Source of the DNA: Eledone cirrhosa
Taxonomy: Eukaryota
Reading direction: 5' to 3'
Length of the DNA stretch: 64,000 nt
NCBI GenBank assembly: GCA_964016885.1
Contig: OZ024763.1
Span: 19,034,001 to 19,098,000 of the forward strand
Shown: positions 12,781 to 12,966 of the stretch, piece by piece
Layout of the letters: every line of letters starts with the position of its first letter
How positions within the stretch are numbered: position 1 is the first letter of the stretch
Made by a program: the position numbers and the translations under genes
Notes under the pieces: generated by a model
What the model was told of the DNA's origin: nothing
Databases searched by the model: none
The model's input: only the letters and a program-made list of their open reading frames with translations

Positions 12781-12783
<3 letters not shown>

Positions 12784-12962
12784 AGTAAGTAAGACCCCGA
12801 CGGCTGAGCTCAAGCCGTTTCAACGGCTAATTCTGACAGAATTAGCCGTCGAAACGGCTTGAGCTCAGCCGTCAGGGTCTTACTCCTATTACCCACTCTA
12901 CTACCCTAAGTATTGAGTACTTTGGTGCGTTATGGTCCACCTGGTTCCTTACCACTTTTCCC

Positions 12963-12966
<4 letters not shown>
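12781..12966 (+). mobile_element. Fold-back hammerhead-half element (Penelope pLTR/retrozyme-like) in (TA)n
   Basis: Near-perfect hairpin 12789-12883 centred on a stem; the right arm reads GAAA-CGGCT..AGCCG-TC; about 80 bp of unique tail is shared with 23810-23890. Confidence 0.7.

Follow-up and report, generated by a model that had tools for sequence, protein, structure and literature searches.

The hairpin-forming copies in the window are 5′-truncated inverted insertions of a Hydra-clade Penelope-like retroelement (PLE) in (TA)n. Each most probably arose from two target-primed cDNAs that ran off a capped RNA start lying in loop II of a predicted U3-A8 hammerhead, a reading built from sequence patterns. 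The window is the whole 64,000-nt stretch analyzed here and lies inside a 3.0-Gb assembly. Positions in the parent element and in the arms of its copies are counted from the predicted cleavage site, with 0 the first base after GUC. Comparisons with published elements draw on parts of the papers cited.

Fold-back copies and their parent element

All four stretches of the window proposed as copies are confirmed, and each folds into a long hairpin (z from −12 to −17; −17 for the copy 1 palindrome at 12779-12889). Copy 1 begins in (TA)n; its inverted arm spans +19 to −37, its direct arm follows from −38 to +19, and a tail of ~80 nt leads back into (TA)n. Copy 2 has the same layout reversed, in a divergent subfamily. 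The features in the window are:

7251..7279, minus strand: fifth, very short copy, a 29-nt fragment of the tail end in (TA)n
12723..12780, no strand: (TA)n on the left of copy 1, the target microsatellite
12779..12835, minus strand: copy 1 tail-less inverted arm, subfamily A, parent +19 (CCTAT priming site) to −37, inner end read directly
12836..12889, plus strand: copy 1 tail-bearing arm, starting at parent −38
12840-12850, plus strand: stem II 3′ strand in the copy 1 tail-bearing arm
12851-12854, plus strand: GAAA in the same arm
12861-12866, plus strand: GAGCTC loop palindrome of stem III in the same arm
12871-12873, plus strand: GUC in the same arm
From 12874, plus strand: stem I 3′ strand of copy 1 (G>A at 12874; 4-nt deletion further downstream)
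12890..12969, plus strand: copy 1 PLE tail of ~80 nt, which spans +20 to about +99 from one priming site to the other and finishes in TAT
12967..12999, no strand: (TA)n, right flank of copy 1
23808..23949, minus strand: copy 2 tail-bearing arm, subfamily D, parent +99 to −37
23949..24010, plus strand: copy 2 tail-less arm, parent −40 to +21
41559..41618, minus strand: copy 3 tail-less arm, subfamily B, parent +19 to −40
41619-41627: copy 3 filler of 9 nt between the arms
41628..41658, plus strand: copy 3 second arm, parent −35 to −5, broken off
52675..52735, minus strand: copy 4, a lone arm, parent +19 to −41/−40 (inferred transcription start), with TA repeats on both sides

An initial annotation of the window had read the right arm of copy 1 as stem II 3′ strand-GAAA-stem III-GUC-GGGUC, with CUGANGA missing from the fold-back copies, and both readings hold. 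The three further copies that it named are present, although the tail of copy 2 (from 23808) fell outside the stretch assigned to it and copy 4 is a lone arm. The copies adjoin (TA)n, as had been said, at their intact ends but not at the right arm of copy 3, which is broken at −5 and has no (TA)n beside it. The central stems do differ and are still paired, but each such “stem” is a stem II 3′ strand paired with its own complement, and the stems differ among three copies because the source subfamilies have different native stems II. The element is asymmetric, with the ~80-nt tail on one arm only (12890-12969 in copy 1); in the whole element the tail sequence of copy 1 is 5′ UTR that runs on to the ORF.

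Fold-back palindromes of this kind are real and far beyond chance expectation. Exact matches and junctions were counted against control patterns: the tail motif has 41,829 exact matches in the genome (controls 0), and short fold-back junctions number 12,010 genome-wide (control 0). Locus samples came from the start of one chromosome. Arm ends were read at 98 loci fetched among the first 100 tail matches listed, with no selection on upstream content, giving 98 position-ordered tail arms, 68 of them with an adjacent inverted arm. The outer ends are fixed at +20 and about +99, and each finishes in TAT, which matches the (TA)n target; the outer end falls at +19/+20 in 57/68 adjacent inverted arms. 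Tandems occur at two loci (L399 and L400), and multi-unit tandems exist. Inverted 5′-truncated copies, a one-sided tail and partial tandems are as in EN+ PLEs, and insertion into (TA)n is as in the Hydra clade.

Described PLE insertions consist of a pseudo-LTR (pLTR), an adjacent inverted 5′-truncated copy and a 30-40 bp tail (PMC8557442). In PAc/Poseidon, RT initiates internally at two sites and the tail is the stretch between them, and in PLE insertion both target strands are cut and extended (Frangieh 2024, PMC11167929). The copies here share the inverted truncated arm, the one-ended tail, the two fixed priming sites and the AT-rich target, but their tail is ~80 nt long and lies in the 5′ UTR (Met at +190). 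They also have a narrow truncation hotspot with a cap-like G, for which we found no description for PLEs in the accessible parts of the open literature.

In the parent (L081) a frame of 818 codons, with its first Met at +190, is flanked by direct pLTRs that lie 3,811 nt from each other; the order is pLTR, 5′ UTR with the tail, ORF with RT and C-terminal GIY-YIG motifs, and pLTR. This single RT and GIY-YIG ORF between pLTRs, as in EN+ PLEs, was recognized by inspection and by alignment to homologues; a Pfam search with four ORF pieces of the parent returned no family. The protein contains RWR, DKT, YRDD, CxCX5C, VIY..YIG, CxxC..E and N..CxH motifs and has 1,596 homologues among 8,000 scored candidates, those listed being 36-51% identical to it and having the same motifs in common.

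The RWK motif, DKT, CxCX5C, CxxC and CxH define the Hydra clade of C-terminal EN+ PLEs, which includes Hydra-1_Obim of Octopus bimaculoides (Craig et al. 2021, PMC8557442). The parent protein has RWR at 117 (RWK/RWR in homologues), DKT in place of DKG at 197, CNCPDRSSC at 652, CNLCSEE at 749 and LLNK..CKH at 766. With its C-terminal GIY-YIG and (TA)n targeting it is thus like the Hydra clade, and it resembles by eye the Hydra alignment in the accessible part of that paper, the placement coming from motifs. It is judged a different family from Hydra-1_Obim, its DNA motifs having no match in the searched part of the supplement to Craig et al. 2021 (PMC8557442). The unit is 3.8 kb long as against <3 kb for the Hydra clade, and Hydra-1_oBim has a canonical CTGAAGA core as against a U3-A8 hammerhead with a ~32-nt loop II here. 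The canonical CUGANGA core, an accessory feature of the clade, is thus replaced by a variant.

These features bear on what the hairpins are. A DNA MITE, which the initial annotation had set against its own reading, is not borne out: the ends are asymmetric, the junctions variable and the sequence colinear with an RT-encoding parent, in place of symmetric TIRs, a constant interior and a transposase parent. The same annotation had also suggested that the fold-back form is itself mobile. Such a unit, as a non-autonomous retroelement or a MITE with terminal inverted repeats in which GAAA and GUC are incidental, would suit the very high copy number, the TA flanks and the inverted arms, and some junctions do recur among those listed. 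Yet with 22 distinct junctions in 24 the fold-back form does not spread as a unit; each of the repeated junctions is found with two different subfamily tags, the tail is on one side only, and the copies are colinear with the pLTR and 5′ UTR of the RT-encoding parent, so that we give this reading almost no credence.

We also rejected non-LTR retrozymes, which in animals are tandem units with complete ribozymes (accessible part of bioRxiv 10.64898/2026.07.22.740005). The copies resemble them as non-coding, hammerhead-related derivatives of PLE pLTRs, but are dispersed, inverted and without the ribozyme core. One tandem array (L398, 558-2322; G000:C3:214.146-214.148 Mb) comprises about six 273-274-nt units (−63..+211) and an inverted arm; its alternate units share variants, and it too is coreless. 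The short copies, without core and upstream promoter sequence, are likely dead, and the hairpins are likely dead by-products.

The predicted hammerhead of the parent

The parent motif reads RCCCC-UUGANAA-G-NN-stem II-loop II (~32 nt)-stem II-U-C-GAAA-stem III-GUC-GGGGU. It bears out the proposal that the copies are the substrate-side half of a retroelement hammerhead motif. An intact parent ribozyme had been predicted as well, and one exists, but with the core UUGANAA and not CUGANGA. When the suggested search for a GACCC-CTGANGA parent was run, it gave 52 CUGANGA matches, and 20/20 of those inspected were junction artefacts without a parent. The 5′ core region has 6,845 matches genome-wide, and among the core matches listed U3-A8 is dominant and position 7 takes all four bases. 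About a fifth of 100 cores listed are C3-A8 (CUGANAA; e.g. L216, L233, L311), and a few are U3-G8 (UUGANGA); neither is a Watson-Crick pair. The core may be relaxed in a C3-A8 sub-branch that still spread.

Features of a type I hammerhead are all found: a three-way junction, G10.1-C11.1, GAAA, A15.1-U16.1, an NUH site, a free position 7 and a 3-8 pair; the subfamilies also retain a GAGCUC palindrome in loop III. Without guidance, RNAalifold arrives at the three-way junction, and in the named hammerhead structure 94% of cells are paired, a level reached by 4/500 shuffles. Three stem II pairs change on both sides (subfamily D). The count of covarying pairs is no better than in shuffles (258/500), most pairs being invariant, and covariation is modest and confined to stem II. 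Single-sequence folding of three parents did not favor the hammerhead (z = −1.4, +0.25 and −0.5). Rfam recognized no hammerhead in the parent pLTR, and its matches at the copies (among the best 150 of 678 in the window) amounted to noise from microsatellites and hairpins.

A U3-A8 variant is described in the Cercyon PLE of Schistosoma (Cervera and de la Pena 2014, PMC4209133, in part). Both elements have a type I motif in the pLTR with a U3-A8 core, a palindromic loop III, a long helix II with a bulge after G10.1-C11.1 and a short helix I. Unlike in the accessible description of Cercyon, helix III here is stable, at 5-6 bp, and the putative transcription start sits in a very long loop II, which would make the 5′ RNA copy a half ribozyme. 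The class of element, its architecture of inverted arm plus tail and its U3-A8 core have been described before; searches based on CUGANGA miss a hammerhead family with thousands of copies.

Two kinds of rearranged motif were seen. L222 and L223 combine a subfamily-D-like stem II 5′ strand with a B-like 3′ half and a UUGAAGA core, either an intermediate lineage or a chimera, and no clear chimeric pLTR with a switch inside −41..−1 appeared among 72 complete motifs. Stem III is recurrently deleted between GCCGTC repeats at −29..−24 and −6..−1 (L141, L245, L249), in 9 of 100 listed by eye.

Arm ends and a putative capped start in loop II

Where the arms end is the main evidence on how they were made. 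Of 98 tail arms, 51 end at −48..−33, 9 at −32..−8, 11 at −7..+2 and 15 beyond +2, with 2 between −49 and −249 and 10 long; adjacent inverted arms end at −48..−33 in 49/68. This hotspot lies in loop II, 33-48 nt upstream of the predicted GUC cut and not at the stem II hairpin. The copies had been described as folded exactly at stem II, which they are not: the ends scatter from −33 to −48, just 5′ of the stem II 3′ strand. They form a broad band with no spike, −41/−40 being about as common as −35/−37, and some arms reach −45 to −57. If the cDNAs ran off an RNA end, this breadth requires trimming and minor upstream starts.

Each arm is a cDNA made separately from the other; the two nearly always have one source and are joined afresh at every insertion. 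Both arms have the same subfamily tag in 23/24 pairs (36% expected at random), and in a larger, partly selected set arm tags are within 1 difference in 51/54. The one clear discordant pair among these 54, at L185 (G000:C1 near 13,301,050), has arms with different subfamily tags, which suggests two RNAs in one insertion event.

The initial annotation had proposed instead that reverse transcription snaps back or self-primes at the stem II hairpin, a single cDNA copying itself. Mirror-image arms, the common tag in 23/24 and the short overlaps common at junctions are what such copying would leave. The native loop II is retained at the centre in 1 match genome-wide, against 12,010 junctions. Moreover, the arm reaching further 5′ (n = 68) is the tail-less one in 29, the tail arm in 24 and neither in 15; the tail-less arm, longer by at least 10 nt in 18/68, is not a self-copy, since it lies further 5′ in 29/68. 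Each of the two arms can have an extra G of its own (L147, L292), and the tags of L185 also speak against one cDNA. Later deletions at the palindrome centre explain some of the asymmetry but not the paired Gs, and we regard snap-back as extremely improbable. A splice acceptor at −35 (YAG) was also rejected as the origin of the ends: arms extend past it, and there is no continuation into a shared upstream exon.

Within the hotspot, T[T/C]AGT at −43..−39 is kept in all subfamilies and resembles an initiator. Arms ending at A(−41) are next to a base that is G in 84 and A in 16 cases (p = 3e-12; tallied by eye in 100 matches listed of 1,322), the pattern excluding any G supplied by the partner arm. 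A check of 30 loci showed that each of the 34 arms with an end at −41 (29 G, 5 A) is a true end; these arms come from three subfamilies. A hidden subfamily with G at −42 was rejected: the upstream sequence differs in each of the 29 arms, across the three subfamilies. In some of these arms the non-templated G stands directly after (TA)n, and one insertion has a G on both arms. At loci unselected on that base, with partner-explained arms set aside and some loci chosen for similarity to copy 1, G follows in 13/20 arms at −41, 6/16 at −40 and 7/32 at −39..−34. RTs can add a non-templated base without a cap. An untemplated upstream G is a standard mark of capped 5′ ends (accessible part of PMC6280765), and Drosophila Penelope has known starts of Pol II type within its pLTR (accessible part of PMC2377424).

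The same boundary appears in longer copies: among the 30 of 100 copies listed that carry 5′ UTR beyond the tail, 5/30 start at −37..−45, one of them as (TA)n-G-A(−41) (L394). From these patterns we infer a Pol II start at A(−41) in T[T/C]AGT, inside the ribozyme. Run-off at a start in loop II means that the RNA 5′ end would be a substrate-only half ribozyme, so the half ribozyme of the initial annotation is kept for that RNA end while its snap-back origin is given up.

On this model, transcription would start at A(−41), inside loop II; the endonuclease would cut both (TA)n strands, and each end would prime at one of two internal sites. Both cDNAs would run off at the cap and be joined by microhomology or filler, and RT may sometimes jump after run-off. 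Retroviral minus-strand strong-stop DNA is likewise primed near the RNA 5′ end, runs off at the cap and undergoes the first strand transfer. The element would work like this system, in priming near the RNA 5′ end, running off at the cap and jumping afterwards, without being a member of it: priming would be from the target and not from a tRNA, both DNA ends would prime, and the strong-stop product itself would be integrated. Our search of the open literature found no cap, start-site or strong-stop hotspot described in PLEs.

The donor of the short copies could be another. They might be templated mainly by capped transcripts of dispersed pLTR-plus-tail copies, acting in trans as SINEs do, which would change the donor and not the run-off mechanism. 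Upstream core region is kept by 6,845 arms, as against 100 exact 5′-UTR matches, and pseudo-LTRs drive transcription in Drosophila Penelope (accessible part of PMC2377424). Against such donors, copies continuing into 5′ UTR or ORF also start at −37..−45, one with the extra G, and tag agreement within 1 difference in 51/54 arm pairs fits a cis preference. We consider dispersed donors rather unlikely, though worth keeping in view.

Long copies, the cut site and neighboring families

The 30 copies that carry 5′ UTR fall into two sets. Eight stop at +139..+916 and are joined head-to-tail to another arm, which starts at −37..−45 in 7 and at about −98 in 1; such joins are as expected if RT jumps after run-off. 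The other 22/30 run at least 1.6 kb into the ORF, and 0/22 start at −33..−48: 19 extend >270 nt upstream, 1 starts at +47 and 2 are unclear. Where a long-arm insertion has a findable partner, the partner is long in 12/13, with 7 such pairs in the first 30 core entries and 5 in 16 fetched neighborhoods, and 1 long-short pair; for 10/16 long arms there is no partner within 7 kb. The lack of a hotspot stop in ORF-spanning copies, together with the long-long pairs, suggests that long copies come from a template without an end at −41.

These data also bear on a further alternative, which keeps the same element and the two primings but takes the inner ends for RT stalls at a structured or protein-bound loop II on a longer RNA. 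The hotspot does sit at an inner hairpin within loop II, with a width of about 15 nt. A stall is nevertheless improbable: the excess of G peaks at a single position, stalls that were independent would give mainly long-short pairs where 12/13 are long-long, and none of the 22 ORF-spanning copies stops at the hotspot.

To return to run-off from a capped start, the mRNA may begin inside its own hammerhead, with the ribozyme split between the RNA ends and with capped and end-less classes of template, a fuller scheme that we put forward tentatively and hold to be somewhat short of probable. Linear capped RNA would give integrated strong-stop hairpins (about 85-90% of insertions), and the end-less template would give long copies and pLTR regeneration. 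That template might be a ribozyme-cut, ligated circle, or its place might be taken by strand transfer through the 41-nt redundancy, perhaps within an RNA dimer joined at the GAGCUC loop. Long copies, which are the rarer kind (about 10%), could come from a circle, from tandem read-through or from transfer through the 41-nt redundancy, and all three fit the long-copy data; a ribozyme-made circle has been proposed for PLEs (accessible part of PMC4209133). At one locus (L332, 196-1266) a tail arm from −41 and an inverted long segment ending near −41 make up an inversion, not a duplication.

A smaller pile-up of ends lies at the cut site, sampled in two differently filtered searches (first 30 loci each). 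In the first (63 Mb), 7 tail arms start at 0, microhomology allowing −2..0 in 4; the rest are 5 at −4..−9, 5 ambiguous in stem III, 3 GCCGTC-repeat deletions and 10 indels. In the second (111 Mb), 7 start at +1, 2 at +2, 2 at +3 and 1 at +4, with 18 indels or other cases. The partner arm also ends at 0/+1 in 5/13, versus 2/68 (p = 9e-4), and the base before 0 is G in 1/15 unambiguous cases listed (by eye). The pile-up hints at an uncapped RNA end left by self-cleavage in vivo after GUC; the excess amounts to 14 loci, at a G-run where RT might also stall. On this reading a few copies would come from RNA self-cleaved at GUC. The accessible part of Frangieh 2024 (PMC11167929) reports no RNA reads ending at the cleavage site.

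How inverted and tandem pLTRs form and what PLE hammerheads do are stated open questions: hammerhead function in PLEs is called unclear (Craig 2021, PMC8557442), and pLTR regeneration is said to have no obvious mechanism (Schostak 2008, PMC2377424), in the accessible parts of both papers. With >40,000 insertion ends in one assembly, start, priming, jumps and cut site become countable, and the genome likely records the RNA start site, and possibly the self-cut site, of a PLE. If the split ribozyme and the two templates hold true, tens of thousands of ends would map cap, priming, jumps and self-cleavage in vivo for this class of retroelement. In the accessible parts of the open literature, including the searched part of the Craig supplement, we found no start inside a ribozyme and no dominant cap-marked strong-stop insertions; coupled arm lengths and a cut-site pile-up were likewise not found there.

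Two further features lie in the window. At 53529-53864 there is a second PLE-type fold-back insertion in (TA)n, of another family, whose inverted arm ends about 5 nt upstream of its own GUC site. It contains a canonical type I hammerhead at 53673-53717 (Rfam Hammerhead_1, 31.7 bits vs gathering 34, E 3.4e-6), a motif also present in L088 and L089. A long palindrome at 54000-54370 has CTGATGA...GAAA in its arms and probably represents a third PLE family; similar motifs flank L081-L087.
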